Origin: a virus
Lineage: Duplodnaviria > Caudoviricetes
Strand: one strand, 5' to 3'
Virus record (IMG/VR): IMGVR_UViG_3300042900_000435
Location: 1 to 30,524 of that record
Length of the DNA stretch: 30,524 nucleotides
Shown here: piece by piece, positions 1,546 through 28,307 of the stretch
Position numbering within the stretch: the stretch's first letter is position 1
How the letters are laid out: the number at the start of each line of letters is the position of its first letter
The notes under the pieces: model-generated
Databases searched by the model: none
Told to the model about the DNA's origin: nothing
Seen by the model: the letters and a program-made list of their open reading frames with translations, nothing else
Made by a program: the position numbers and the translations under genes

Positions 1546-3219
1546 TTATTGTCCCTGTGTCACAGTAATTTTAGCACATCCGCCGGCAGTGGTACAGTTA
1601 TGCGTGATTGAATAGTAGTTTTGAGTACTGCCACTTTGTGTTAAGCTCAGATCAGTAGGCGTGCCGCTTAGATTAACTTTGGCCATATGGCCTGCACTAC
1701 CTTGTTGTAGTATATCTACATTTTTATTACCGCCGCTCAGTGTGACTTCAGCATAGTGACTACCACTGTCTTTTTGTTGCACTAGTAAACTGTTGTTATT
1801 GCTACCGACATCGGCAAATATTCCTTTGCTGCCACCAGTACTGGTCTGTTGTAGATCTACTGAGTTAAAATTGCCCACAACTCTCAAGTCAACATAGTTT
1901 ACCTGTGTCGTGGCATTACCAGTTTGTGTGATGTTAACATCGTTGCTTAGGCCGTTGCCATAGTAATTAACATAATTATTTCGTGTACCAGATTGATTGA
2001 CGATAACTTCATTCTGTGTTCCAAGTTGTTCAATATTAACTTTACTATCGGCAGTTGTTCTGTTAGTAAATGTTAAAACTTTGGCTGTATTTGTTGTATT
2101 TGCATTGAAAGATGCTGCTGATCCTCCACAGCATAATGTGTTGTTAGCTGCGGTCACTGGATCAACAATTGTATTACTAGATGCTGTTGATGTTGTTGTG
2201 CTGTTGGCATCATAGTAATAGGTAATCTCCGCAATCTGCATACTGTCGCAATTCAGCCCGCACCCATCACCTGCTTTGGTAGTTGGAAACAGCATAAAGT
2301 AATATGTGTAAGCAGTGGTATTACCTGTGCTAATCACTGAGCTAGTAGTAAAACGATTTTCACTTAATGTGATAGAATCTTGCTTAATCAATGTCCAAGT
2401 CGAACCATCATTACTGCCGTATAGTTTATAACTTGTAGGATCACGTCCACTAAAATCGTTGGCTGTGGTAACTGTAAATCCTGTCACTATTCTACCGGAA
2501 TTTAACTGAACAGTAACACCTGCATTCTTCTTATCAAAGTTTAGATATTTTGTATTTGGATTATTATCAAATGCATTATTAGGACCTTCACCGCCGGGAC
2601 TATTATTACTAGTTGGTATTGCTCTAGTAATATTAACTGTGGCACTGTTCATGTAGATTGCTGTAGGCGCAGGTGGAGGAGGACCTGCCGGTGCGGCAGT
2701 TTGCCCAGCAGCCAATGGAGTTGTTGATCCGTTAGCAGCGTATGAGTTAACCTGCGCCACTGTGGGATTCACTGTGCCAGTCCATGACAATCCGCTAGTA
2801 TTGGCAAATCCTTGTGTCATACTAAACAACTGGCCAGTATTGTTATCGTTACCTACAAAGAAGAAATAGTCTGTGCCCATATTAATAATACGTCCAGTTC
2901 CCATCACTGCTTTCTGTGTGCCTCCTGAACTAAATTGCACAGCGTTCCAGGGGTTAGTTGAATTACCAGTAGCAGCAAATGCCACATAATCACCAGTCGC
3001 CCATGCTAATTGTCCACTAGTCCAAGGGATCTTGTATGCTGTTCCTGGTTGCTTACTATAAATTTGACAAGTTGCTGTATACATACAGGCGCTGACGTTC
3101 CATTGACTGTCAGCAATTTGAAAGCGGCCAAATTTTAAATCAACAAGACCTGTTGCTTGACTATGTGCGCTCAGACAAAATGCCGTTAGAAAAGAAAATA
3201 TTAATAAGAAACGCTTCAT
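1546..3219 (-). CDS. Secreted chimeric protein: N-terminal domain, Pro linker, F5/8 type C (discoidin/CBM32-like) domain, C-terminal curlin repeats
   Basis: Signal peptide; APAGPPPPAP linker; EGPNNAFDNNPNTKY...RDPTSYKLYGSNDGSTWTLI...MQIAEI discoidin-like signature; C-terminal Q-x-G-x-x-N-x-x-x-V-x-Q repeats (IEQLGTQNEVIVNQSG and following). Confidence 0.8.
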   Translation of the reverse strand: MKRFLLIFSFLTAFCLSAHSQATGLVDLKFGRFQIADSQWNVSACMYTATCQIYSKQPGTAYKIPWTSGQLAWATGDYVAFAATGNSTNPWNAVQFSSGGTQKAVMGTGRIINMGTDYFFFVGNDNNTGQLFSMTQGFANTSGLSWTGTVNPTVAQVNSYAANGSTTPLAAGQTAAPAGPPPPAPTAIYMNSATVNITRAIPTSNNSPGGEGPNNAFDNNPNTKYLNFDKKNAGVTVQLNSGRIVTGFTVTTANDFSGRDPTSYKLYGSNDGSTWTLIKQDSITLSENRFTTSSVISTGNTTAYTYYFMLFPTTKAGDGCGLNCDSMQIAEITYYYDANSTTTSTASSNTIVDPVTAANNTLCCGGSAASFNANTTNTAKVLTFTNRTTADSKVNIEQLGTQNEVIVNQSGTRNNYVNYYGNGLSNDVNITQTGNATTQVNYVDLRVVGNFNSVDLQQTSTGGSKGIFADVGSNNNSLLVQQKDSGSHYAEVTLSGGNKNVDILQQGSAGHMAKVNLSGTPTDLSLTQSGSTQNYYSITHNCTTAGGCAKITVTQGQ

Positions 3220-4313
3220 GGTCTTCTCAATACTCCGGTCTTCTGAATAATGTTTACAACATTGCCGCCTGGATCTCCGCTACCGATTATATTAAACGCA
3301 TATTGATCGTTGTGACTGATTGATACAAAAGTATTCGAATCGTATCCGGATGTTTTTACTTCAGCGTAGTGATCTACATTACTTCTGTAGGCTGTGCCTT
3401 TACCTTTACTTTGTATATCAGATGAATCATTCTTTTCCCACGCCACACATACTGATGTGCTAGCATTACAACCAATCTTTCCAGCTGCTTCCATCATGGC
3501 AAGTATCCGAGCACTTTCAATAGCTTCGTTTGTTTCTCTAACTCTCATGGCAATTCGACGTTGTGCTTCTACTTCAATATCTTCAAATTCTCGATCTTGT
3601 TTTGATCTTGCTTGTTGTTTTATTGCGAGCATAACTTCTTGAGGCTTAACAAGAATTAAATTGTTACCTATATTGCCTTCGATAGTATTAACAACAACCG
3701 GGGCAGTTGGCATCATTGAAGCACTAGTGACATAGGTAGCTTCAAACGCTTTGTCTAGAGTCACTGATCCGATGCCTGTACTTACTGTGATACTGCCTAC
3801 TTTACAACGTTGTTCGTCTAATTCAAATTGTTTAACATCTTTTTCGTCTTTACAACTAGGAACCAGCATGACAAGACTTTGCCCAGTTTCGTCCACAGTC
3901 ATAGTGAAGTCAGTGCCACGCACTGCCACCGTGGCTGTTGGGGTTTTAATGTTTACCTGTTGCGGATTATTTTTAGCAATTTGTCCACTAGCGTATCGGA
4001 CAGTGCCCATACCAACTTTGAGCGCGAGCTTGCCTGCATCTGATTTCTTAGGATCGAAAACAAAATCGTCGATAAGCAATCTGCTGTTTTCTGTAACCTT
4101 GACTTTGGTATCATCTTTGAATGTTATATTACTTACACAGGCACCGGTTGTGTAGGTGTCCATGCTTTCAATGTCAGCCCCCTTGACTCCTGAAAGTTTT
4201 TTCTTGTTGCGTTCAACTTCACAGGCTGTGCCTTTGTTTTCTGAAACCGTGCCAATGCCAGCCCAGGAAGGGCTGGCCACTGTTAGCAATAGGGCTAACA
4301 ATATGACACGCAT
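3216..4313 (-). CDS. FecR-domain exported protein
   Basis: Signal peptide (ASPSWA); FecR motif ITFKDDTKVKVTENSRL...GTVRYASG...IKTPTATVAVRGTDF; ATGA overlap with the downstream gene. Confidence 0.85.
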   Translation of the reverse strand: MRVILLALLLTVASPSWAGIGTVSENKGTACEVERNKKKLSGVKGADIESMDTYTTGACVSNITFKDDTKVKVTENSRLLIDDFVFDPKKSDAGKLALKVGMGTVRYASGQIAKNNPQQVNIKTPTATVAVRGTDFTMTVDETGQSLVMLVPSCKDEKDVKQFELDEQRCKVGSITVSTGIGSVTLDKAFEATYVTSASMMPTAPVVVNTIEGNIGNNLILVKPQEVMLAIKQQARSKQDREFEDIEVEAQRRIAMRVRETNEAIESARILAMMEAAGKIGCNASTSVCVAWEKNDSSDIQSKGKGTAYRSNVDHYAEVKTSGYDSNTFVSISHNDQYAFNIIGSGDPGGNVVNIIQKTGVLRRP

Positions 4314-4315
4314 AA

Positions 4316-5131
4316 TTACCTCGCAATCGCTGTGGCTGGTGATACAATGTTCGAACTACTTGTACGAACTGTGATAGTGTTGTTGCTACCCTGTGTTTGT
4401 ATATTAACTGTGGTATCGTTGGTACCTTGTTGCTGAGTGGTAATACTGTTATAGTCACCAACGGTATTCATGGCAAGAATATGTCCGTTAGCACCGGCTG
4501 CATCCATTTGCTGAATGTTGAATACGTTGGCATTACCGTTAACAATATTAGATACTTGACCTCTGCTACTTAACAAACTGCTAGTAACTTGGTTGTTGTC
4601 ACCATCTAACACTGTGTTAGTTGTGATATTGCTACCGACTAGCTCTTGTAGAATCATGTTGTTATTACCGATAATTTGTTCTGTAATAACGTTTTGACTG
4701 TTAGTAGCATTATTGGGATTGCCAACAGTCAGTCTAGTTTGATTACCATTACCTAACATGTTGGTAGTATAACTATTATTGCTACCGCGAATGTTATACT
4801 GGCTGCTATTAGCATTGCCGGTTTGTGTGATGTTAACCGTATTTGTGCTGCCTGTAATAGTTCCGTAGTTTGTTGCGCTAGGAGCATCTGGTGTCAGTGT
4901 GGTAATACCTGTTCCAGATACTGCGGTTGCTACTGTTGTAGTAACACCGCCAACATTGTTTGTCCCGCCAACCTGTTCGATAGTGATAGTATTGCTACTA
5001 CCAACTTGTTCGATATAGACTTTGTTAGGGCCTGTTGCTGTCTGAGCACCACTTATGGTGGCAAAGCTCAAAAGCATCACTGTGAGTAATTTTCTCGACA
5101 ACTCACTACCGCCTGTCATTGTTTGTTTCAT
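4316..5131 (-). CDS. Curlin-repeat protein (CsgA/CsgB-like amyloid subunit)
   Basis: Signal peptide; N/Q/G/T-rich; repeated IEQVGSSNTITIEQVGG, ITQTGNANSS, QQQGTNDTTVNIQTQGSNNTITV; lies next to csgG/csgF. Confidence 0.85.
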   Translation of the reverse strand: MKQTMTGGSELSRKLLTVMLLSFATISGAQTATGPNKVYIEQVGSSNTITIEQVGGTNNVGGVTTTVATAVSGTGITTLTPDAPSATNYGTITGSTNTVNITQTGNANSSQYNIRGSNNSYTTNMLGNGNQTRLTVGNPNNATNSQNVITEQIIGNNNMILQELVGSNITTNTVLDGDNNQVTSSLLSSRGQVSNIVNGNANVFNIQQMDAAGANGHILAMNTVGDYNSITTQQQGTNDTTVNIQTQGSNNTITVRTSSSNIVSPATAIAR

Positions 5132-5228
5132 TTTTTTTCTAATGTCAGTTTATTTTTTGCTGACAAGTTCCTTGGACCTGTGTCCGTTGATAATATTTAC
5201 TTGCTCCTATTACAATATTATACTCCGC

Positions 5229-5276
5229 TGTTAAAATTTCAACATGTTAAAATTCCAACATGTTAAAATTCCAACA
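5229..5276. repeat. Three tandem 16-bp palindromic units TGTTAAAATT(T/C)CAACA (TGTT-N8-AACA); candidate CRP/Clr-family boxes
   Basis: Units at 5229-5244, 5245-5260 and 5261-5276 in the csgG-curlin spacer; minus-strand TATAAT at 5217-5222. Confidence 0.85.
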
Positions 5277-5279
5277 CCA

Positions 5280-6524
5280 TTAAGGTTTGTCAACCAGTAC
5301 ATCCTGCTTAACAAATCCTGATCTCTTTTCTGAATCGCTTACTTTGTGCCAGCCTTCTGGTCCCGGAGCAATAATGGTTAATTCAGTGCCTTTCTTTAAC
5401 AGCCAGGTGCGCTGACTTTTTTCATTTGCTTCTTTATAAACATATGAATCTTCTTTTAAATATCTAGCACCAAATAAATCTACTGTGGGCTTTATGCCAG
5501 TTTGCATCGCTGTTACTTTTAAATCAGCTGTAGGTTCTTCTTTCTTTACTTCTTGGGAGGTACTGGATACGGTTTCGGTTTTGGTTTCGGATTTGGTCTG
5601 TGGTTGAACCAACTCATCTTTCTTCTCCTCTACTGCTGGTGCAGGTGCAACTATTGGTGCGGGTATCGTTGGAATAACAGCAACCGGAGCACTTACTTTA
5701 TTGCTTTTAAATGCCCAGTGACCTTTGCGGGCACCTTCGTTGATAGTTTGAATTACTGCTGCCTGTACAGCTACGTCGATTGCCTTGTTGATGCTTTCAT
5801 TTATACTGCCGCCGACTTCACCCTCTAACGCATTTGCGTTAGCACCTAAAGTTGTGCCGTCTCCAACAAATCGCAATAATGTTACTTTGTCCATATAACT
5901 CAAGACTGTTTTGGTCACAGTCACTGTTGTTAAAATTTCGCCTGTAGACACGCTCACGGTTCTTAATGTCACTGTCACAGTGTCTGATTGATATTGTGTG
6001 CTTGCACCAATACCAAACAGTCTCACTCCACTGCCGCCTGTTAGGGTATTTGAATCATAGCCAACAATACCACCTTCCATGATAATTCCAGCAAACATCA
6101 TTGGAGGCAACAGCTTGGCATCACGTCCTTGATATTGTTCACGCATTTGACGAATCATTTGACGTTCTTTAATCAAGTTCTCTAGACCGACACGTTCTAA
6201 CACTGTGAACCAGCGTTGATCACCTACATCCTGCAGGGCCTTGATTAGATAGTTTTCAGCACCTTGCGTAACTGCTGAACTTAATGACGCAATCAGTGGC
6301 TGGCTTTTACGCTGCCCTGTTAGATCTCTAAATCCATACACTGCCACTGTTAACGGACCGCCTTCTGGTGGTTGTAATTTATTAGCGTCTTTCTTTAGAA
6401 ATTTACTAGACTCGACTTTTGGTTCGTCAAACTGATTTCCAGTTATTTTTTCTCTGATAGCTGAACTCGATGCGCAGCCAGTTAATACTGCAACAACTGC
6501 CAAGGATAATAATGTCTTTTTCAT
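5280..6524 (-). CDS. csgG: Curli secretion channel lipoprotein CsgG with C-terminal linker and SH3b-like domain
   Basis: Lipobox LTGC; CsgG motifs VAVYGFRDLTGQRK, LSSAVTQGA, WFTVLERVGLENLIKERQMIR, EGGIVGYDSN; last ~60 aa (LLKKGTELTII...GWHKV...SGFV) look like SH3b. Confidence 0.92.
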   Translation of the reverse strand: MKKTLLSLAVVAVLTGCASSSAIREKITGNQFDEPKVESSKFLKKDANKLQPPEGGPLTVAVYGFRDLTGQRKSQPLIASLSSAVTQGAENYLIKALQDVGDQRWFTVLERVGLENLIKERQMIRQMREQYQGRDAKLLPPMMFAGIIMEGGIVGYDSNTLTGGSGVRLFGIGASTQYQSDTVTVTLRTVSVSTGEILTTVTVTKTVLSYMDKVTLLRFVGDGTTLGANANALEGEVGGSINESINKAIDVAVQAAVIQTINEGARKGHWAFKSNKVSAPVAVIPTIPAPIVAPAPAVEEKKDELVQPQTKSETKTETVSSTSQEVKKEEPTADLKVTAMQTGIKPTVDLFGARYLKEDSYVYKEANEKSQRTWLLKKGTELTIIAPGPEGWHKVSDSEKRSGFVKQDVLVDKP

Positions 6525-6527
6525 CGA

Positions 6528-7013
6528 TTATCCCCCAAATCCAAATGTGCCGCTAGGCACGATCATTTCTGTAAATTGTCTTGGATCTAGTACATTTTCA
6601 ATTCTAACAACAATATTAGTGCCTACTACTTTCCAAGTAATGAAATTACCTGCCACTTCCATCTCGCCACAGTTACCTGAATTGTTAGCAGTGCAAACTG
6701 GAACACCATTAACACCAAACAAACTGTCTGTAATTTGTTTGGCTAGTTGTGAATAGATACGACTTTCTAAATTTGCTTTAAATTTAGCCTGCGGAGTGTT
6801 TAGTGCATCAGATTCTGCTTTTGCTTTTAGAGCATCGGCAGCAGCCTTATTTTTATCCCTAGCTTGTGTTTCTAATTGGTGTATAGTTAAGACGTGAGAA
6901 CTAAAACCAATACCACTAAAGGATGGGCTGTTAAAATTATGTTGTAATTCTGCACTGTTAGCTGCTGTTGCAATTGTAGCCATCAATGCGGTGGCTATTA
7001 TAAACTTAACCAT
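6528..7013 (-). CDS. csgF: Curli assembly protein CsgF
   Basis: Signal peptide followed by AELQHNFNSPSFSG (CsgF N-terminal NPxFGG-like motif) and FKANLESRIYSQLAKQI; directly upstream of csgG. Confidence 0.85.
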   Translation of the reverse strand: MVKFIIATALMATIATAANSAELQHNFNSPSFSGIGFSSHVLTIHQLETQARDKNKAAADALKAKAESDALNTPQAKFKANLESRIYSQLAKQITDSLFGVNGVPVCTANNSGNCGEMEVAGNFITWKVVGTNIVVRIENVLDPRQFTEMIVPSGTFGFGG

Positions 7014-7103
7014 CGATTCGCTCCCGGTAGTTACTGTTAGTATTTACGTAGGGACGATCTAAAGTTAACTGATTAGTTTAATCTAGATTAAAAGGATAGT
7101 TTA

Positions 7104-8201
7104 TTACGGTACCTTGACCTGCATACCATTCTGAGCACCGCCATCGATCCCTAATTTTTGTATGATCATAGTTTGTGCAAATTGGTCGGCAGTTTCAATG
7201 TATATGATATTTCCGGAACCGGTGTTGATGAATAATATTCCTTTAAATTCATCATGTGTTTTATAATAATCAAATGCGTATTTTTTTAATGCTGTGTAAA
7301 AAGAATCAAATATAACCGATCCTTGATTGTTCACTGCCGGGGCAGTTAATTGATTAAGTTCTGCAGGAGTTGCATCAAGATAGATAGAATTTATAACACC
7401 GCTAAGAGATGTTCTAATAAATTTTACCACACTGGCTGGCTTGGCACCTGCATTAATCAATGTTGGCCCGAAGTTATTCCAGAAATCTGATGTTTTTCCC
7501 ACATTAACAGTAGCAGGCGCAGTAATTGGGGCTTTTAATCCCAACTTACTAGGAAGGCTTGCGGCTGCTGTTTTTAGTGCCGACAGAGTTGAAGTGCTGT
7601 TACCGTAGCCTCGAACACCTTTAATTCTTCCGCCGTTGCCTTTTACTTCAATTAATTTACCAGCAATTACTAAATCGCCAGCGTCTTTGCTTAACATGAT
7701 TTTTGGGCTACAGATAGCCAAAAACATTTCTCCTGGGCCTTTTTGTGTTTTTGTCTTACCTGTTTTAAACAGTCCTTGAATAGCTATTAACTCGGGAGCG
7801 ACTTGTTTATAAACATTGGGATAGTTAGTAACAACCAATGATTCAAGATTTTGCCATACTCCGGGTGATAGTAGTTTTTTAAGATTAATAATGCCTTTTG
7901 TTGCTAATTCTACAGCGAAGCCTTCTTTTTCTTCATATGGTGCCTTGGCATCAATAATAGCTCTAGAAATAACAGTATGCACTTGACGAAGATCTTCGTC
8001 TTTCTGTAGAATCGAATCTACGCCACCGCCGATATCAATCTTTCTTACATAAGAATAAATTTGATGCAATTCATCGATATCTGTGACCTGATCAATTTTA
8101 CTAACAATTGCCTGCTTTACATTAGTCAATTGGCTAGAATTTGCAGGAGTTTCTCCTGGGGTTTGCGATATTTTTTCTGATAAAAATTCAAAGGATCTCA
8201 T
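7104..8201 (-). CDS. Hypothetical protein with PD-(D/E)xK nuclease-like motif
   Basis: GPGEMFLAI...AGDLVIAGKLIEVKG fits an E...GD...EVK catalytic pattern. Confidence 0.55.
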   Translation of the reverse strand: MRSFEFLSEKISQTPGETPANSSQLTNVKQAIVSKIDQVTDIDELHQIYSYVRKIDIGGGVDSILQKDEDLRQVHTVISRAIIDAKAPYEEKEGFAVELATKGIINLKKLLSPGVWQNLESLVVTNYPNVYKQVAPELIAIQGLFKTGKTKTQKGPGEMFLAICSPKIMLSKDAGDLVIAGKLIEVKGNGGRIKGVRGYGNSTSTLSALKTAAASLPSKLGLKAPITAPATVNVGKTSDFWNNFGPTLINAGAKPASVVKFIRTSLSGVINSIYLDATPAELNQLTAPAVNNQGSVIFDSFYTALKKYAFDYYKTHDEFKGILFINTGSGNIIYIETADQFAQTMIIQKLGIDGGAQNGMQVKVP

Positions 8202-8209
8202 ACAGTTAT

Positions 8210-8893
8210 TTATCGGATTTCAGGGAACAGGCATTCTTGGATAAAATGCTGAACATCGTCCTCTGATAGTCCTAAACTAACCATTACACGCGGTGTATGC
8301 GGGTTACACTTCTGATTTTGTGCATAGTAGTTCTGTGCTTCTGTAGTATCTGCCGCTGTATTGTTTGTTTCAGCAACTGTGCTTAGATAGTGTTCTATTG
8401 TAGTTTTTGCTAGATCTGTGATCTGTTGTAATTCTTCTTCATCGCTGACATTACCAGCAGCAACCATGCTACCACTGAATATGTTTGTAGCCCACTCGGG
8501 CAGGGCACGTTGTTTACGCCATTCTAATTTGGCCACTTCATCATGAAACCATTGCATCATAGGATGGTCAGCATCACCCGCTTTGGAGTAATCATGGAAA
8601 CAACCTGTGATTTTGTTTTTGCCAGCAATTACATCGAAGCCGTAGATCGGTGCTGGATTATGCGTATGCGGGAAGATGCAACAATGCATCATCCAAAGTC
8701 CCTTGCTTTCTCTAGCGTCTACTACATCAACGTGAGCACGACGATACCGATCACTAGTCCACACACGATTAACCCAGCCAGGTTGATTAAATCTTTCCAT
8801 CCCAGGCTCATTAACCTCTTGACCCGTGCGGCTGAAGTTATCTTCCAATAGATGTTGGATCTCAATTAGTGTATCCCATACCTTACTCTCCAC
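8210..8893 (-). CDS. pcyX: Ferredoxin-dependent bilin reductase, PcyA/PcyX family
   Basis: RRAHVDVVD...MMHCCIFP...PIYGFDVIAG...FHDYS, LPEWATNIFS and QNYYAQNQKCNPHT motifs; Asp at the PcyA Glu76-equivalent position; adjacent heme oxygenase. Confidence 0.85.
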   Translation of the reverse strand: MESKVWDTLIEIQHLLEDNFSRTGQEVNEPGMERFNQPGWVNRVWTSDRYRRAHVDVVDARESKGLWMMHCCIFPHTHNPAPIYGFDVIAGKNKITGCFHDYSKAGDADHPMMQWFHDEVAKLEWRKQRALPEWATNIFSGSMVAAGNVSDEEELQQITDLAKTTIEHYLSTVAETNNTAADTTEAQNYYAQNQKCNPHTPRVMVSLGLSEDDVQHFIQECLFPEIR

Positions 8894-9428
8894 GATACAA
8901 ATCTCGCATCATTTTAATAGCATATTCAAATGCTACACGAGCTTCGTCTCCAAGGTCGTCTGTTAGTGTTTGACGGATGGCCATTTTCATCGCATCGCCA
9001 TTATCAAAGTCGTAGAACTTGCCACTGCTAATATGTGCTACTTGTTTCTTAATGATTTGACCACCGAATAGGTCACCCATATGACGGCAGTATAAATGCG
9101 CCTTAACCAAATGTTTACGTTCCGGATCATTGCCTAGTTTGTGTAAGTATGTCTGATACTCAAGTGTAGCAGGAGTTAGATAACAGTAACTACCGTCGTC
9201 TAATTCTAGAAAGTCTGCAAGAATACCCTTGAGACGAGGAAGGTCTGGCATTGTGACCAGGAACCCCTGACGCTGACAATACCATTCAATAGGATCGTAT
9301 ATGGCCAAAAGATTATAGAGATAATTTCTGTAGTCTTGTTTTTCAATCTTGCCACTCAGCAACATCTTGGCAAACACAGTGGTTTCTGCTTCGTGATGCA
9401 GATCTTTGGTAATCTCTCTTAGACTCAT
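8883..9428 (-). CDS. hemO: Heme oxygenase
   Basis: LREITKDLHHEAE proximal-His motif, AHLYCRHMGDLFGGQII, EARVAFEY. Confidence 0.92.
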   Translation of the reverse strand: MSLREITKDLHHEAETTVFAKMLLSGKIEKQDYRNYLYNLLAIYDPIEWYCQRQGFLVTMPDLPRLKGILADFLELDDGSYCYLTPATLEYQTYLHKLGNDPERKHLVKAHLYCRHMGDLFGGQIIKKQVAHISSGKFYDFDNGDAMKMAIRQTLTDDLGDEARVAFEYAIKMMRDLYRGE

Positions 9429-13406: not shown

Positions 13407-13794
13407 GATGATTTGAGACTTTCTCCAATAAAGTTAAAATTTCTTCAACACTGTATATAGCACGATCGTTGACCATATGTAAATCTTTTAGATTGCCAAA
13501 ATAGTAAGATCGTGGTTGAGCCGCTACCCAACCTATGATTAATTCGATAGCACCATTATTTTCAGGAGAAGCGTTGAATATAATCAAATCACCTTTGACA
13601 ATTTTGTCCATTAACCATGCAATAGGGTCTCCCATTTTCCAAACATAGTTTATGATGGTATGGGGCAGCGTGGCCTGCATCAATGCGTTGGAAACGATAG
13701 CACTGTGTTCTTCTGTGAGTTCTACATGAACAATTCGAATACCTTGTAACAAGGTATCGTCAGGCGAAGTAACAACTAGAATACGGTCACTCAT
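13399..13794 (-). CDS. Hypothetical protein (start probably MSDRIL at 13794)
   Basis: ATGA overlap with the upstream gene; co-oriented; no recognisable motif. Confidence 0.7.
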
Positions 13795-15257
13795 TTTTTG
13801 GCGTCTTGAATTCGTTGCCAAATGGTACGTTCACTCTGTTCAGCATTCTGTTGATAGTTTTCTTTGATACGTTTGATCTGGTTGCCCTGTTCATCATGTT
13901 CCATCCACGACACATCAGAAACACCACGTTCTTCAGCCCACTCTTTGGCCTTTGCTGCTTCTTCTATGTCGGGATTTTCATCGGCCCATTTCTTGGCTTC
14001 TACAGCAGCTTCATCCACAAAGTCTGCCTGAGGTTTGAGATAATTTTCCCAAGGCAACTGATCTATGATGCCTTTTGCCAACAACTGTCTTTGAAACTTA
14101 AGACTAGAATCCGGATGATCATGTTTCCACGCTGTCATAGCCGCAGCTTCCGATGTGGTTGCCGCTTCTAATATTTCTGAGTCTTTGATCTCACGTTCTT
14201 GTTCTACAGCTTTCTCAGCTTCTGCAATCATTTTGTTCCATTGCTCAAGCGGTATGTCTTCTACCGTTTCTGCTGGCTTTTCCTCTGTTGCTGTTATATC
14301 ACCTCCTAGTGCAGTCAACGGTGTTTCGCCTGGAACTTTTTCTGTGTGTGTTTGTGCTGGTGGAAACGGCCAAAATGCGCTCGGTGTTCCGTAAAACGAG
14401 ATTGTTTCTTCTTTGGGTTCTATCTCTGGTTCTTCAGTTACGACTTCTGTTTTAACAATCTCCGGAGTTTCTTCTTCTTGTTTTCGGAACCATTGGAAAC
14501 TGTATTGGCTTGCTAGCAGTAAAATAACAGCCAACGGATCAAATACAATAACAATAATAATAATTACCCATGTTACTGCTTTTTCTAATACGTTAGCATC
14601 TGGATTATCACCGTAGATAAAATTGGCAATATATTTTATTGGTCCAACTTCTGCTTCTACTTTGCGGACCTCAGCGGCAATCGGTGCCCTCTCTTCAGAT
14701 AGTTGACTAATAATTTTCTGTTCGGCTGCAATCTCAGTTTGGAGACGAGCACGTTCTTTTTGTTGGCCTCTTCGAATCGCAACTGCTTTGTCGGCACCTT
14801 TTTCGTCACTGCTTCGACCCATGACTTGGTCCACAGCCTCATCCATCTGTTTAAGCGCCTTACGGTTCGCATCTATATTATCCTTGGCAGTTTTAATCTT
14901 TTCGTCGTAGACGGCTATTCTACTCTGCACATCACCTGATACAAGACTTTGATCACTGTGTGCTTTAGACAAGAAGCCAAAAATACCCATACTAGTGATT
15001 AACATCAATATGGCAATGGCTGCTAGCAGATAGGCTCGAATAAAATACGGTGCTCTAGTCCAATTTTGTTTGAGCCATACAGTGCCAGCCAGTTTGCTGA
15101 CTTCCAAGGCCACTCCCATCACGATGATGGGAATAACTGCCGCAGAGAATATGGCCACAAGTCCAGCCACGCTGTAATAGATGGCCACTGCAGATACCGT
15201 TAATCCGCTGATTAAGGTTGACCATGCAATGAATTTGTCGCTTGTATGTATTCTCAT
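13791..15257 (-). CDS. Membrane protein with three N-terminal TMs, a coiled coil, a fourth TM and an acidic tail
   Basis: Hydrophobic segments around aa 10-55, 75-95 and 228-250; heptad-rich middle; E/K-rich C-terminus. Confidence 0.75.
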   Translation of the reverse strand: MRIHTSDKFIAWSTLISGLTVSAVAIYYSVAGLVAIFSAAVIPIIVMGVALEVSKLAGTVWLKQNWTRAPYFIRAYLLAAIAILMLITSMGIFGFLSKAHSDQSLVSGDVQSRIAVYDEKIKTAKDNIDANRKALKQMDEAVDQVMGRSSDEKGADKAVAIRRGQQKERARLQTEIAAEQKIISQLSEERAPIAAEVRKVEAEVGPIKYIANFIYGDNPDANVLEKAVTWVIIIIVIVFDPLAVILLLASQYSFQWFRKQEEETPEIVKTEVVTEEPEIEPKEETISFYGTPSAFWPFPPAQTHTEKVPGETPLTALGGDITATEEKPAETVEDIPLEQWNKMIAEAEKAVEQEREIKDSEILEAATTSEAAAMTAWKHDHPDSSLKFQRQLLAKGIIDQLPWENYLKPQADFVDEAAVEAKKWADENPDIEEAAKAKEWAEERGVSDVSWMEHDEQGNQIKRIKENYQQNAEQSERTIWQRIQDAKK

Positions 15258-15267
15258 GAACTAATAT

Positions 15268-15696
15268 TTAGCTGGACCAGTGCCACCTATTATCTACTTC
15301 GTTAAAGCAGGCAGTGGTTTGTAGATCTTTCTGCATGTTATGTGCAATAACACTCACGTGCAGGCGTTTGCATAATGCGCCATTTCTAGGAAACTGCCAT
15401 GCCACTCTAACTGTGCCGCTGGCGTTGTTCTTATACCATCTGGAGAATTGACCAGGTTGAACTTCCTCCAGAGCCAATATCAGCGAACTATAATAGGCAT
15501 CTTTCTGATCAGCATCAAGACCTTTGAACCAACCAAAACTGATATTGAGAATTTGTTCCAGCAAAGGTCCGTTGGTCTCTGGATAGAACTTGGGATTTTC
15601 TATGTTAATTGTCTGTGCGTTAGTGGACGTATTCATAACCAACAACAGCGCCGTTGTGGTCAAGAATCTGACAGCTTTTGATTTGTAGGTTAACAA
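15268..15696 (-). CDS. Exported 17-kDa surface antigen-like (RT0821/Lpp0805-like) protein; start probably TTG 15696
   Basis: GGAGA RBS before TTG; signal peptide; ALEEVQPGQFSRW...SGTV...CKRL...TACF...RW pattern. Confidence 0.6.
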   Translation of the reverse strand: MLTYKSKAVRFLTTTALLLVMNTSTNAQTINIENPKFYPETNGPLLEQILNISFGWFKGLDADQKDAYYSSLILALEEVQPGQFSRWYKNNASGTVRVAWQFPRNGALCKRLHVSVIAHNMQKDLQTTACFNEVDNRWHWSS

Positions 15697-15967
15697 GTTT
15701 ATCTCCAGATTGAACAGTTCTATTTGCGATACCACAATGACCAGCCATGCCCATTCTCACAGCAGTGAGCCGTTTGAATTGATCGTCGGTGCATTCAACC
15801 AAAGTTTCGCTGTTTACACGTTCACCATTCTGAGTCTTGATGGTTTGGCTGGTATGGCAGTATTGAGGTTTCTGTGCCTGCACCTTGGGAGCTGAGCCGC
15901 ATCCGGTCAACGCCAAGACACAAGCCAACAGAAATGTGGGCATCACCGCGATAGCAAGAGCTCGCAT
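15620..15967 (-). CDS. Cys-rich lipoprotein
   Basis: Lipobox ALTGC; TAATG overlap with the upstream gene. Confidence 0.7.
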   Translation of the reverse strand: MRALAIAVMPTFLLACVLALTGCGSAPKVQAQKPQYCHTSQTIKTQNGERVNSETLVECTDDQFKRLTAVRMGMAGHCGIANRTVQSGDKLVNLQIKSCQILDHNGAVVGYEYVH

Positions 15968-16446
15968 TATTGTGCCCTTGCTTGCTTGGCTTCGGCGATC
16001 AACTGCTCGAATACGTCTTTCTTCATTTCAAGACGAGCATAAGTGTAATGACGTCCGTTCATGGTAAAATGACCTTTTTCGGTTTTTACATGTTTGCGGA
16101 TAGCAGTATCTGTGACTTTGTAAGAAATCATAGTGCGAGTAGTTTTCTTGTCATTAACAATGTCAATCACAGTTTCAGAATTTACAGAACCGTTGATGCG
16201 TTTTGCAAAGTTGTTCATGGCAATGGCATCCATCTGTTCTTCTGCTGCCTGTGCGTGAATCGATTCACCTGCACCGCAGGCATAGACCATGTCTTCTTTC
16301 CACCAGAACCAACCCTTGACGCCTTCTTGAGCGCAGTCTTGATACCAACTAGGTTGCGCATAGGTCTTGCGATCTGGGATATCTTTCATTGAAGAACACC
16401 CTGTAACGGCTGCTGCCAATAAGCCTACTAAAATTGCCTTTTTCAT
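15967..16446 (-). CDS. Lipoprotein (LPP20-like); true start MKKAIL at 16446
   Basis: Lipobox AVTGC; PSWY and GAGES...AAEEQMDAIA LPP20-like pattern; promoter and RBS upstream of 16446. Confidence 0.7.
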   Translation of the reverse strand: MKKAILVGLLAAAVTGCSSMKDIPDRKTYAQPSWYQDCAQEGVKGWFWWKEDMVYACGAGESIHAQAAEEQMDAIAMNNFAKRINGSVNSETVIDIVNDKKTTRTMISYKVTDTAIRKHVKTEKGHFTMNGRHYTYARLEMKKDVFEQLIAEAKQARAQ

Positions 16447-16479
16447 CGTTTGCCTTTCTGTGTGTGTAACGATAACAAT

Positions 16480-16508
16480 AGTATAGCACCACAGCCGACC
16501 AAAGTCAA
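16480..16508 (-). promoter_or_regulatory. Sigma70 promoter
   Basis: TTGACT-17-TATACT with TG extended -10. Confidence 0.75.
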
Positions 16509-16525
16509 CCGGGTGCCTTACCAAT

Positions 16526-16825
16526 TTACTTGAAGAAGATCAGGGCCATTAGCACAGCCTGGACAATAAATCCAAATCCAATAGTGACAATGTTCAACAT
16601 GTCTTTTTGGATTGTGGCTTTGACGAACAACAGAGTCAATCCTGTCCAAACCAACAACACCAAATCCACACCCGGTAGTTTATCGGTCAGTCCTGCCATC
16701 ACTGCCAACATGCTAGGCACCGTGGCGGAGTGCAGAACAATAGCCGCAAGCCAACCAAATGTTTCTGCTGAGATCACAGAGATTTTGGTTTGAACAAAGG
16801 CTTTGACTTGATTGATGTCGATCAT
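16526..16825 (-). CDS. Three-TM small membrane protein, SemiSWEET/PQ-loop-like (start MIDINQ at 16825)
   Basis: GWLAAIVLHSATVPS followed by two more TMs; AAAGGA RBS; ATGA overlap with the sleB-like gene. Confidence 0.6.
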   Translation of the reverse strand: MIDINQVKAFVQTKISVISAETFGWLAAIVLHSATVPSMLAVMAGLTDKLPGVDLVLLVWTGLTLLFVKATIQKDMLNIVTIGFGFIVQAVLMALIFFK

Positions 16826-17376
16826 ATTTTGATTCCTTTCTGTTTGTAAAAAATGTGCTGTCCGATTTGACCTATTTTGTCTAACGGCCATCTTGGGTTA
16901 ACGTAGGTGGCATGATAATACAAAGCATCTTTGAGAATAGACAATCTAAATCCTTCCAAAAGAACTTTTTTAGCGACTTCATAGCTTTCATTGTATGCTT
17001 CCTTGTTGATTGGTCTGTTTCTATGTACCGAGTCACATGCCCATGAGAATTGACATACAACTTTTTCCATGAATACATTTTTTTGGTATACTACTCCGCA
17101 GACATCGTTGCCAAATTTTCCAGCGGCTACCCGATTCATAGTTACCTGCGCCACTGCTACTTTACCTTCGAAGGGCTCATACCCTGCTTCACGATAAATG
17201 TTGATGGCCAAACAGTCCAACTGTTTTTCACGTGTTTGTATTGAAACCACGTCCTTGCTGTAGGCACCATTCTGTTGTTTCAGCTGTTGAAACTTAGCAG
17301 TGGTCATGTTAGTAACTAACCATACCACAGCGATCACTCCTAATACATAGGATACTACTTTAAATGATTTTTCCAT
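16822..17376 (-). CDS. SleB-like cell wall hydrolase (Hydrolase_2) with N-terminal TM
   Basis: CLAINIYREA.GE..EGKVAVAQVTMNRV, CQFSW, ALYYHATYVNPRW, IGQHIFY. Confidence 0.92.
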   Translation of the reverse strand: MEKSFKVVSYVLGVIAVVWLVTNMTTAKFQQLKQQNGAYSKDVVSIQTREKQLDCLAINIYREAGYEPFEGKVAVAQVTMNRVAAGKFGNDVCGVVYQKNVFMEKVVCQFSWACDSVHRNRPINKEAYNESYEVAKKVLLEGFRLSILKDALYYHATYVNPRWPLDKIGQIGQHIFYKQKGIKI

Positions 17377-17630
17377 AAGTCCTCCTTTGACTTGGTGTAA
17401 TCCAAAATACAGATTACATTACATAAAGGGAGTTAACTTCACGAGGCTCTGAAAGAACCCTACTTTCGTGTAGTTGTCTCCATTGGACGCACAATCTCAT
17501 AACTTGTGTGCCTCTGGCGACCCTTGGCATCCCGAAAATACGGGTTTCTCATTGGCCAAGACCCGCGGAATCGTTTCTGCTTTTGACATACTTTGATTCA
17601 ACTATCTTAGTTTCTTTGCGAAACGTTTAA
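17377..17630 (-). ncRNA. Candidate structured 5' leader / cis-regulatory RNA of the hydrolase
   Basis: About 250 nt non-coding with at least five stems: 17523-28/17555-60, 17531-34/17541-44, 17489-94/17504-09, 17435-44/17466-75, 17396-402/17412-18. Confidence 0.55.
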
Positions 17631-17635
17631 TATAT

Positions 17636-17664
17636 ATCATACTTTCTTTCTTTCAAGTTGTAAA
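17636..17664 (-). promoter_or_regulatory. Sigma70 promoter driving the structured leader
   Basis: TTTACA-17-TATGAT. Confidence 0.6.
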
Positions 17665-17671
17665 CCGGCGG

Positions 17672-18067
17672 TTATCGACGCATTTTGGAGATATCTACAG
17701 CTTCTTCATCACTAAACACCGGAACGGCATTGCTCTTGTGCATTGTGGCAATGCCTTTGACTTTGGTTCCTGTGTAGATTGGACTGGCTTTCAACACAGC
17801 GTTACCACCGGTATCTACACTTTTAATGTGTGCTGTGGTATTACGGCCTTCTGGAATTTTCAAACTGTATGAACTGCTCAAACTAGGAGCACTCAATCCA
17901 CGAGTTCGTTTCTTTTCTTCGGCCTCTATGCCCCATTTTTTCTGCAATTCTTTCCAAGATTCATCCAATTCACGAGTTTTGCGGGCATGATCTGCAGAAG
18001 CAAATTTCTTCTTGCCTTTTTTCTTGCCTGTGGTTGACAGCCACGGACCTTCTAAATGCATGCTCAA
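17672..18067 (-). CDS. Basic hypothetical protein of a type common in large myophages
   Basis: C-terminal YTGTKVKGIATMHKSNAVPVF motif; AGGAG RBS; own promoter. Confidence 0.75.
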   Translation of the reverse strand: MSMHLEGPWLSTTGKKKGKKKFASADHARKTRELDESWKELQKKWGIEAEEKKRTRGLSAPSLSSSYSLKIPEGRNTTAHIKSVDTGGNAVLKASPIYTGTKVKGIATMHKSNAVPVFSDEEAVDISKMRR

Positions 18068-26197: not shown

Positions 26198-26283
26198 ATT
26201 ATAATAGTATTTAACTTGGAAATCAACCTTTTTAATAGATTCGTCCAATAATTATTTCAATGACGATTATAGGAAAAATTAAT
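26198..26283 (-). promoter_or_regulatory. ahpC promoter with OxyR-like operator
   Basis: TTGATT-17-TATAAT (26226-26198); ATAG-N7-CAAT at 26235-26249 and CAAT-N7-ATAG-N7-TAAT at 26258-26283. Confidence 0.55.
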
Positions 26284-26286
26284 ATC

Positions 26287-26313
26287 AAAAAGAAACCCGC
26301 CGAAGCGGGTTCT
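26287..26313 (-). terminator. Intrinsic terminator of the tmRNA
   Basis: AACCCGC-UUCG-GCGGGUU-UCUUUUU. Confidence 0.85.
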
Positions 26314-26678
26314 GCTATTTTTGATTACAAGGTATAACTACCTCGGACCGCTGTTTTTTAGGCAGCTAGAGCAAATCTGCTTTCATTAGCAGCACCGCGA
26401 ACGGTGTTACCAGTGAAGCTCATTGCGCTGAAGTCAAATGTATTTGCGTTTGCATTTACGTGTTTTGCTTGATTTACAGTCATCGCCTACTGTGTTGCCT
26501 TCTCCACTATCTCACCCTGTCGAAACCTTGACTGGCCCATCAGAAGCATACTTGGAAGATTTATTTACCGCTGACTATTACTCTTCCCCAGCGTCACTTT
26601 AGTATGCTTCTGGTGGACCAGGTGGGAGTCGAACCCACGTCCAGAATGCCTTCACTTTGAAGGGATTACAACAATTCC
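26314..26678 (-). ncRNA. ssrA: Circularly permuted (two-piece) tmRNA; outer ends approximate
   Basis: Acceptor piece GACGUGGGUUCGACUCCCACCUGGUCCACCA ends at 26611 and lies upstream of the coding piece, which starts GGGCCAGUCAAGGUUUCGAC at 26538. The 7-bp acceptor stem has the G3-U alanine determinant. Tag ORF 26453-26358 ends FALAA*. Confidence 0.93.
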
Positions 26679-26882
26679 TTAAGCAGGCTGAATATTGCTG
26701 GCCTGCTGGCCTTTCTGCCCCTGAGTCACTTCAAACCTTACACTTTGTCCTTCTTGTAGGCTCTTGAAGCCACTCGAATTAATCTGTGAAAAGTGAGCAA
26801 ATAAGTCTGCGCCACCATCGTCCGGAGTAATGAATCCAAAACCTTTGGCGTCGTTAAACCATTTTACTTTTCCTGTTACCAT
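26679..26882 (-). CDS. cspA: Cold shock protein
   Basis: [30 protein letters not shown]. Confidence 0.96.
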
Positions 26883-27347: not shown

Positions 27348-28307
27348 TTATGCTGCCACCACTCTGTTAGATATTGCACCAACAATAATATCGGAGTGTA
27401 AATTTGGTGTAAATTTTCCGCCTGCTGCACCATTCAGTGTTGCTAATTTATTTTGAGACGGTGTTTTCTTGCCTCCATTCGGCAATCCCGGAATTGCATA
27501 ACTCACGTGTATCCACACAGTCTTGTTTGGTAGATATTCCAACAGCAGTTGATCGTAGGGAATGTTTTTACTAATCCATACAGCAATATCAAAATAATCG
27601 TGTGCGCCCACTCCTCTAAACTGTAGGTCCATGGCCTGACCGGTGCCGTGTTGGCTTTTAGGATCGTTGTGTCTAAAACTATTGGTTATGGTTGCGTTTG
27701 GATATTTGGCCTTGACAGGTTCCCAAACATTTAATGCCAGTGCCGCTAGATTATTGACCACCGCACTTGGGCCGCTGACTGAAGGTGCGCATTGTGCTAG
27801 TTGAGGAATGGTTCTAGGAAAGGTAACTGCCTTTATCATTGTACCTAGTGTGGTGCCGTTGGGTGTTAGAACAGTAGCAAAACTTATGTCGCCAGTAACT
27901 GCCGCAGCGTCCCGCCCTTGAACCGGCGCACCAGGACCTACACCATCTGTTTTAGGAGTCGGAGTTGTAGTAATAATCTTGTATTCTTCAGCAGTAATTC
28001 TACCTTCTGCGAGAAATTGATCAGCTTGAGCTTTGCCCGCGGTATTATCGTCATCACCTTCTACGTTCTGCACAGCTGCTGTCACAGTGACCTTGGGCAC
28101 AGTGGTAGCTGTGAATGTTCCCGGTGTTGTGGCTGCATCATACAGAGCAATTTCAACACCATTGGCAAAAACATTAAAGGGATTATATAGGGGTTCTTGA
28201 CGACTTAGTGTTCCGGCTGCATGATTATGCGGTACAAGAAAATGTCCACCAACACTACTAGATCCCGCGCCGGGGGTGGTCGACTGTGTGGTAGGAGTAG
28301 TTGCCAT
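27348..28307 (-). CDS. Peptidase M15 family zinc peptidoglycan peptidase with N-terminal extension
   Basis: ITNSFR, SQHGTGQAMD (SxHxxGxAxD), DQLLLEY...WIHVSY. Confidence 0.85.
   Translation of the reverse strand: MATTPTTQSTTPGAGSSSVGGHFLVPHNHAAGTLSRQEPLYNPFNVFANGVEIALYDAATTPGTFTATTVPKVTVTAAVQNVEGDDDNTAGKAQADQFLAEGRITAEEYKIITTTPTPKTDGVGPGAPVQGRDAAAVTGDISFATVLTPNGTTLGTMIKAVTFPRTIPQLAQCAPSVSGPSAVVNNLAALALNVWEPVKAKYPNATITNSFRHNDPKSQHGTGQAMDLQFRGVGAHDYFDIAVWISKNIPYDQLLLEYLPNKTVWIHVSYAIPGLPNGGKKTPSQNKLATLNGAAGGKFTPNLHSDIIVGAISNRVVAA

Follow-up and report, generated by a model that had tools for sequence, protein, structure and literature searches.

The locus examined here raises the question of what a long structured RNA does directly in front of a phage gene for a cell-wall hydrolase. 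The window, by which we mean the whole stretch of DNA analysed (30,524 nt), is a 30.5-kb virus fragment, estimated to be 9% complete, whose genes include a permuted tmRNA, RNR, DnaK, csgG/csgF, heme oxygenase and bilin reductase. The tmRNA (26267-26703, minus strand) is a permuted two-piece RNA of the betaproteobacterial type with the tag ANANTFDFSAMSFTGNTVRGAANESRFALAA; at 3216-9428 (minus strand), csgF, csgG, curlin-repeat and FecR genes adjoin those for heme oxygenase and bilin reductase, a gene set as in pelagimyophage-like phages.

All genes near the leader lie on the minus strand. An intergenic gap of 295 nt, the largest non-coding gap apart from the tmRNA and 22-kb regions as judged by eye from the ORF list, runs from the stop of a 131-aa ORF at 17672 to the sleB ATG at 17376. 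The earlier note had called the downstream gene a SleB hydrolase, and the domain search bore this out (PF07486, E 6e-25), with further matches to the phrog_938 endolysin (E 2e-20) and to PDB 4f55/4fet (E 2e-8); residue E63 is invariant in 8 of 8. The SleB N-terminus is hydrophobic (hydropathy 1.96 over residues 4-22) and presumably serves as an export signal or anchor. The features of the locus, all on the minus strand, are as follows.

17672..18067 (-): hypothetical upstream gene, 131 aa (phrog_27048); the usual neighbour, not a required one
17631..17636 (-): promoter-like TATATA box, of the -10-only kind, just 5′ of the RNA; TAAATA in divergent members
17377..17625 (-): structured leader RNA as a whole; homologues 231-282 nt, median 249
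17610..17624 (-): P1, hairpin GUUUC/GAAAC with a GNRA-like loop; 100% paired, nearly invariant
17568..17607 (-): P2, variable covarying stem; 17599-17595 pairs with 17572-17568
17517..17566 (-): P3, helix of 10-12 bp; 17566-17555 pairs with 17528-17517
17535..17540 (-): P4 loop, covarying with the P6 bulge, with which it forms pseudoknot PK1 (as its 5′ side)
17480..17517 (-): P5, with CCA/UGG closing pairs, a tandem-A loop, a variable stem and the loop GUUAUGAGA
17478..17481 (-): upstream GGAG (anti-anti-SD), invariant; overlaps the UGG of P5
17435..17475 (-): P6, long stem; its bulge AAAGUA (17466-17461) is the 3′ side of PK1
17422..17432 (-): anti-SD strand CUCCCUUUAUG, the 5′ side of P7
17396..17418 (-): P8, variable covarying hairpin between anti-SD and SD
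17381..17390 (-): 3′ side of P7, including the Shine-Dalgarno (SD) GGAGG (17385-17381), 5 nt from the ATG
16822..17376 (-): SleB/Hydrolase_2 cell-wall hydrolase, 184 aa

The genes that follow sleB (13791-16837, minus strand) encode a 103-aa membrane protein, two lipoprotein-like ORFs, a 155-aa ORF and a 488-aa membrane-anchored coiled-coil protein. Pfam and PHROG gave no match to any of these, and the same leader may head them as an envelope or lysis cassette. A holin label for the 103-aa protein was not adopted, the Atlas search having yielded nothing beyond viral hypotheticals and a weak lead to MtN3/PQ-loop proteins (0.89). A second endolysin-like ORF lies at 27348-28307 (minus strand; phrog_894, E 3.5e-9), so that SleB may not be the main endolysin.

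Conservation and distribution of the leader

Loci with close sleB genes were collected, of which the best 80 of 302 were taken, giving 56 distinct upstream sequences; 54 of these carry the 5′ motif, with L010 a variant and L044 devoid of the RNA. The set was extended by three pattern scans of viral sequences (at least 119, at least 119 and 23 loci) and one of metagenomes (at least 120 loci), where chance matches made up 7 of the 23 loci in the third viral scan and at least one among the at least 120 metagenome loci listed. There are 171 distinct full-length leaders, whose identity to the window copy goes down to 51% (measured on the first 100); many of them are close kin, and the counts given below are therefore not counts of independent events. 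Over 49 loci, the conservation of the leader (0.847) was practically that of sleB codon positions 1+2 (0.851), the values being 0.546 for the third positions and 0.54 for the spacer, and the leader was more conserved than the third positions at every locus (49/49).

In Rfam 15 at the gathering score, the tmRNA was the sole match in the window. The best scores on the leader were 14 bits (E 4-8), and none recurred in 9 divergent loci. This search, which the earlier note had suggested, is consistent with its idea of a possibly new RNA. Resemblances to the group I intron, RNase P, cobalamin, c-di-GMP, glmS and ykkC RNAs were dropped, having no Rfam match and the wrong order of words.

A single copy of the RNA is present in each of 5 phage records out of 5. 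Relatives that carry it are as long as 353 kb (98% complete) and 327 kb (92%). In one relative, G001, where 211 of the 234 ORFs of at least 140 aa were scanned, we found a clamp loader, a B-family polymerase, RecA-like and XPB-like proteins, KDO8P synthase and heptose enzymes, a gene content that suggests a jumbo tailed phage of a Gram-negative host. The KDO and heptose genes, together with the betaproteobacterial-type tmRNA of the window, point to a proteobacterial host. G001 also carries an IscB-like ORF fragment (L523:1166-1678, E 3e-10, below the cut-off). A scan of 185,579 prokaryote genomes with the exact pattern, which would miss divergent host copies, gave one match, on a phage-like 4.3-kb contig within a MAG; this contig carries the phage gene order, and no host chromosome was found to carry the RNA. 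Among 50,697 cultured phages, blastn of the leader returned only one chance match of 30 nt, and the model R1 found nothing at the sleB regions of 5 of the 951 cultured-phage hits, nor at L044. Applied to 34 of 37 more distant sleB/rlpA loci, R1 gave 5 matches, all in clades already known here. By these sequence comparisons, the leader RNA is a conserved family of giant freshwater phages, lying outside any catalogued RNA family.

Close sleB genes without the RNA exist, which makes the RNA dispensable: L044 keeps only the SD end, behind another gene, and L475 has the usual upstream gene and a 140-nt leader with two simple hairpins. A contig resembling L044 was seen in an RNA library. Internal deletions of the leader in L145 and L100 remove P3/P4 or the 5′ strand of P3, and may be natural mutants or assembly artefacts. 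Other regions also look structured. In the T5-like Salmonella phage Sw2 (L466:685-1035), sleB is preceded at a distance of two genes by a gap about 430 nt long, whose ends are complementary along some 17 nt and hint at a further long structured RNA; it matches neither R1 nor Rfam. In a related phage (L496, upstream of 1113), a different structured-looking leader and a short ORF precede an RlpA gene; this leader follows the same kind of TATATA box and has no R1 match.

Fold, covariation and the pseudoknot

The minus strand of the leader folds better than shuffled sequences (z = -2.65; 1 of 200 shuffles equally good). The plus strand also folds (z = -3.84), so that folding by itself does not fix the strand. 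At one P3 pair, G-C to G·U exchanges in 36 of 99 homologues give standard pairs on the minus strand only. A covariance model was built from 35 diverse sequences, and 99 leaders were aligned to it: 95.2% of the cells were paired and 15 of 46 pairs changed on both sides, a result equalled by 0 of 500 shuffles, with slid controls at 47% or less; being fitted to the model, this alignment leans towards the structure. RNAalifold on an unfitted MAFFT alignment of 47 sequences gave two-sided change in 11 of 52 pairs. Conservation and covariation among homologous leaders, on which the earlier note had staked its proposal, were thus both found.

The covariation is concentrated in P2, P5, P6 and P8, the near-invariance of P1, P4 and AGAU/GUCU leaving these pairings unproven by it. 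In P1, the loop occurs as GCAAA, GUAA, GAGA or GAAA. Two-sided change affects 6 pairs of P2 (in up to 48 of 99 sequences), 4 of 7 pairs of P5, and 4 of 6 pairs of P8 (in up to 25 of 36 sequences). The P2 region carries in 70 of 171 leaders an AGUA/GAA-type word, which we take to be a loop-E module. P3 encloses the conserved loop CAAUGAGAAA (J3/4) and P4 (17544-17541 with 17534-17531). Although its 3′ strand is variable, 22 of 22 strand types retain the pairing, and at most 2 of 200 letter shuffles were equally stable. The 5′ strand hardly varies, so that a second constraint seems to act on it, such as a mutually exclusive pairing of the invariant AGAU (17607-17604) with GUCU (17562-17559), an alternative that never covaries. 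The first model combined a P3 of 4 bp with AGAU/GUCU; the variation supports the extended P3 instead, and R1 and the 99-leader alignment show the alternative register (AGAU/GUCU plus the 4-bp P3) at this place.

The pseudoknot PK1 pairs the P4 loop with the P6 bulge. Two-sided change was found in 5 of its 6 pairs, which are 84.7% paired, and only 3 of 5000 type shuffles did as well (17 types); it is formed poorly in one clade (6 of 99 sequences). A second pseudoknot, between the P5 loop and UGUAAU past the anti-SD, is not established: it is 86.6% paired with no two-sided change, 221 of 500 shuffles scored as high, and a result of 79 of 3000 type shuffles was accompanied by 665 of 1000 letter shuffles.

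Possible partners of the anti-SD strand

The word CUCCCUUU (17432-17425), the upstream GGAG (17481-17478) and the SD AAAGGAG (17388-17382) are all present where the earlier note had placed them, and the CUCC strand has two possible partners, the upstream GGAG or the SD. All elements occur in 171 of 171 leaders, a count that holds partly by construction; in cores chosen irrespective of the 3′ end, the unbiased counts are 170 of 171 for UGGAGA, 168 for the CUCC-type word and 165 for SD-ATG. Among the misses are one chance hit (the single UGGAGA miss), two contigs that look rearranged, and an insertion. The SD stands 5-9 nt from the ATG in every one of the 171 full leaders and is joined directly to P7. 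P7 and P8 are about 98% paired in 36 sequences, the anti-SD with the SD side at 97.9%. P7 draws its support from U·G/U-A alternation, from single two-sided changes in L084 and L212, and from an extra U on one strand matched by an extra A on the other, found in L084 and in 7 leaders of a single clade; two apparent two-sided changes in the P7/P8 alignment are alignment shifts. CUCC and the two GGAG words hardly vary at all. Covariation therefore proves neither pairing, and the switching between the two is our inference. The earlier note had also placed the SD in an AAGUC/GACUU hairpin; this hairpin is present in the window and is not conserved, occurring in 44 of 171 leaders. What had been proposed there as a new structured leader tied to a lytic enzyme stands, with 171 copies, covariation and an anti-SD strand that has two possible partners. 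No conserved leader peptide was found: the ORF starting at AUGGAG runs for 4-100 codons, and 3 of 168 leaders lack the AUG.

The balance between the two folds was computed without pseudoknots, which the ensemble energy calculations leave out. Under constraint, the ensemble energy of the SD-sequestered (OFF) fold exceeded that of the GGAG-paired (ON) fold by +1.2 ± 1.4 kcal/mol. Forcing AGAU/GUCU moved the balance towards OFF in 26 of 29 sampled leaders, by -2.4 kcal/mol on average; this computed coupling is weak evidence, as the constrained AGAU/GUCU-plus-OFF minimum fold of the window departs from the covariation-supported structure.

The leader thus has a fold of P1-P8 with PK1, a fixed position and two possible partners for CUCC. 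As is expected of translational riboswitches, a structured, covarying 5′ leader stands before functionally related, non-homologous genes (SleB, RlpA). We regard it as probable, though well short of certain, that this pseudoknotted, phage-restricted leader acts as a ligand-responsive translational switch on an exported wall hydrolase, hiding or freeing its ribosome-binding site. Transcription would start just past the TATATA/TAAATA box, and the whole leader would be present on every message. In the ON fold, which nearest-neighbour calculations slightly favour without ligand, the upstream GGAG and CUCC would extend P6 and leave the SD free. In the OFF fold, the GGAG would be held in P5 and the conserved junctions, and the CUCC-SD helix P7 would stack on P8. 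An effector bound to the invariant core (J3/4, AUGGAGA, the P1 loop and PK1) would tip the balance, presumably by stabilising the OFF fold; the polarity could be reversed. An enzyme that carries an export signal of its own does not depend on a holin, so that its dose and timing would have to be set at translation. As to the effector, a small molecule is our tentative choice over a protein; a phage or host protein in this role seems rather doubtful.

A leader that is structural and constitutive, with no binding partner, would stabilise the mRNA or fix the translation rate, or respond only to temperature or folding kinetics. It would suit the unconstrained folds, where CUCC pairs dominantly with the upstream GGAG in 139 of 171 leaders and with the SD in 20. 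However, such a role needs neither unpaired nucleotides that are invariant by the dozen nor a pseudoknot at a distance of 80-160 nt from the SD, and relatives manage with short leaders, which makes this explanation unlikely.

Neighbouring genes, promoter-like box and known leaders

The position of the RNA bears on whether it is a leader at all. In 64 of 68 viral loci with enough DNA and in 63 of 63 metagenome loci, sleB lies directly 3′ of the RNA. Two of the four viral exceptions have RlpA (PF03330, E 9e-22) in its place, and the other two have an element with a TnpB-type ORF inside P8. This element of about 1.8 kb (L096/L119, the same contigs as L221/L251) separates the RNA core from sleB, which lies about 1.8 kb further on, past the insert, in the one record examined. 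In L212/L341, an 85-aa hydrophobic ORF follows the RNA, succeeded in L341 by an ORF that is RlpA-like by resemblance. The 131-aa gene is absent before the RNA in L212, L219, L232 and L238. Thus the upstream genes differ among lineages and a downstream cell-wall hydrolase persists, either SleB or the unrelated RlpA, the RlpA association being confined to two lineages.

One could suppose that the RNA acts on its own as a non-coding RNA, be it trans-acting, structural or catalytic, and is only co-transcribed with the hydrolase gene; its size, its own promoter-like box and its single copy in 5 of 5 records would fit, as would the intact survival of the 5′ part where the mobile element splits P8. 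Yet it travels with two unrelated hydrolase families and not with its upstream neighbours, its last helix includes the SD, and the gap before sleB has no terminator-like site. Contigs from RNA libraries, where DNA carry-over is possible, also extend across the leader into sleB. Taken together, these points render an independent RNA quite unlikely. For the rest, 24 lake and freshwater RNA runs contained 8-12% of the leader words, and in 8 such runs only contigs of relatives were found, with no common end.

The earlier note had credited the leader with its own promoter. A TATATA/TAAATA box, which we read as a putative promoter, does precede P1 in 137 of the 143 distinct sequences upstream of the RNA, in most cases by 11-15 nt. 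The sigma-70 sites show no such conservation: a -35-like word is present in 18 of the 143, and the two sites at the leader are among 25 found in 5 kb, where 11.7 are expected. In G001, TAAATA outnumbers every other intergenic hexamer, with 72 occurrences versus 33 on the other strand, and it is the core of the T4 late promoter TATAAATA as described in PMC3014915.

This raises the possibility of regulation in the manner of T4 gene e, where the SD would be hidden on early read-through messages and translation would proceed from messages started late, inside the hairpin. The logic is the same, a lysis enzyme with an SD-covering helix (PMC3014915); P7, as a possible fold, places the SD in a helix before a lysis gene, and, no terminator-like site being present, transcripts of the upstream gene could run on into the leader. 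However, TAAATA, TATATA, TATAAT and ATAAAT occur in 0 of 171 leaders between P1 and the SD, the promoter-like box lies 5′ of the whole RNA, and 200 nt of conserved fold would be left unexplained. With no internal late promoter, the leader is not a gene e-type hairpin, and regulation of this kind is very improbable. According to PMC3014915, the leaders of T4 gene e (lysozyme), soc, 49 and I-TevI share with ours an SD that can be sequestered in a helix, at a phage lysis gene in the case of gene e, but they are single hairpins with a late promoter inside the 5′ strand, whereas the present leader has no internal promoter word and possesses eight helices, a pseudoknot and an alternative anti-SD partner. 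The operators of T4 gene 32 and gene 43 are phage leader structures (in gene 32 a pseudoknot) that govern translation; in the same account they are short, act through a bound protein and are autoregulatory for nucleic-acid-binding proteins (PMC3014915), whereas the leader RNA described here precedes the gene of an exported wall enzyme.

A divergent c-di-AMP (ydaO) riboswitch is barely conceivable. The ydaO-yuaA RNA (RF00379) is likewise a structured, pseudoknotted leader, ydaO riboswitches regulate cell-wall hydrolase genes, and one word in the window, GUAGGG, resembles what we take to be a ydaO consensus word. The resemblance suggested by the earlier note nevertheless fell away: RF00379, for which membership means a score at or near 38 bits, has 0 matches at E ≤ 10 in the window and none in the 9 divergent loci, and GUAGGG occurs in only 68 of 171 leaders. 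The ydaO RNA is 134 nt long and the leader about 250 nt, conserved words and topology differ, no DAC domain was found in 5 of 5 phage records, and the leader is phage-only with a host that is probably proteobacterial; Proteobacteria mostly lack c-di-AMP.

Candidates published by Fremin et al. (2023, PMC10690425) stand before the same downstream domains. Those listed in the tables searched are DNAVirus_262, 1958, 511, 559 and 9038 upstream of Hydrolase_2 (38-99 nt) and 786 and 8392 before DPBB_1 (74 and 106 nt); at 38-106 nt none of these is near 250, and three are marine. DNAVirus_262 (45 nt; 31 sequences, 30 of them freshwater, 31 before Hydrolase_2; PMC10690425) could be the P7/P8 end of the leader RNA. 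The methylophage Melnitz, an aquatic myophage with a permuted tmRNA and csgG/csgF, also has a riboswitch-like RNA, a glutamine (glnA) element of a known Rfam class at ssrA that was speculatively tied to lysis timing (PMC9004378); the glnA element has no match to the leader, and SleB has 0 occurrences in the accessible text of that paper (PMC9004378). A literature search of titles and abstract openings, with subscription papers mostly outside its scope, gave no description of the leader RNA, and the main text of two 2026 language-model preprints does not mention hydrolase, SleB, endolysin, cell wall, jumbo or RlpA.

According to McCown et al. (2017, PMC5473149), phages seldom carry known riboswitches and undiscovered phage classes are possible. 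Carried further, the reading of the leader as a ligand-responsive switch would make it the first phage-specific riboswitch class, a 250-nt double-switch RNA by which a jumbo phage senses a host metabolite or alarm signal; we offer this as a speculation that is possible, if less than probable. Candidate signals would be (p)ppGpp, a cyclic nucleotide of anti-phage defence, or a precursor or fragment of the wall; if this is true, a self-exporting lytic enzyme would be timed to the state of the infected cell. The leader RNA is a concrete candidate, of a length suited to transcription and probing. It comes with a defined anti-SD and 171 natural variants, and both deletions and insertions in it are known from nature. 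Should it sense a metabolite, lysis timing would gain an input at the RNA level that is independent of holins; if it binds a protein, it would be among the most elaborate phage translational operators described.
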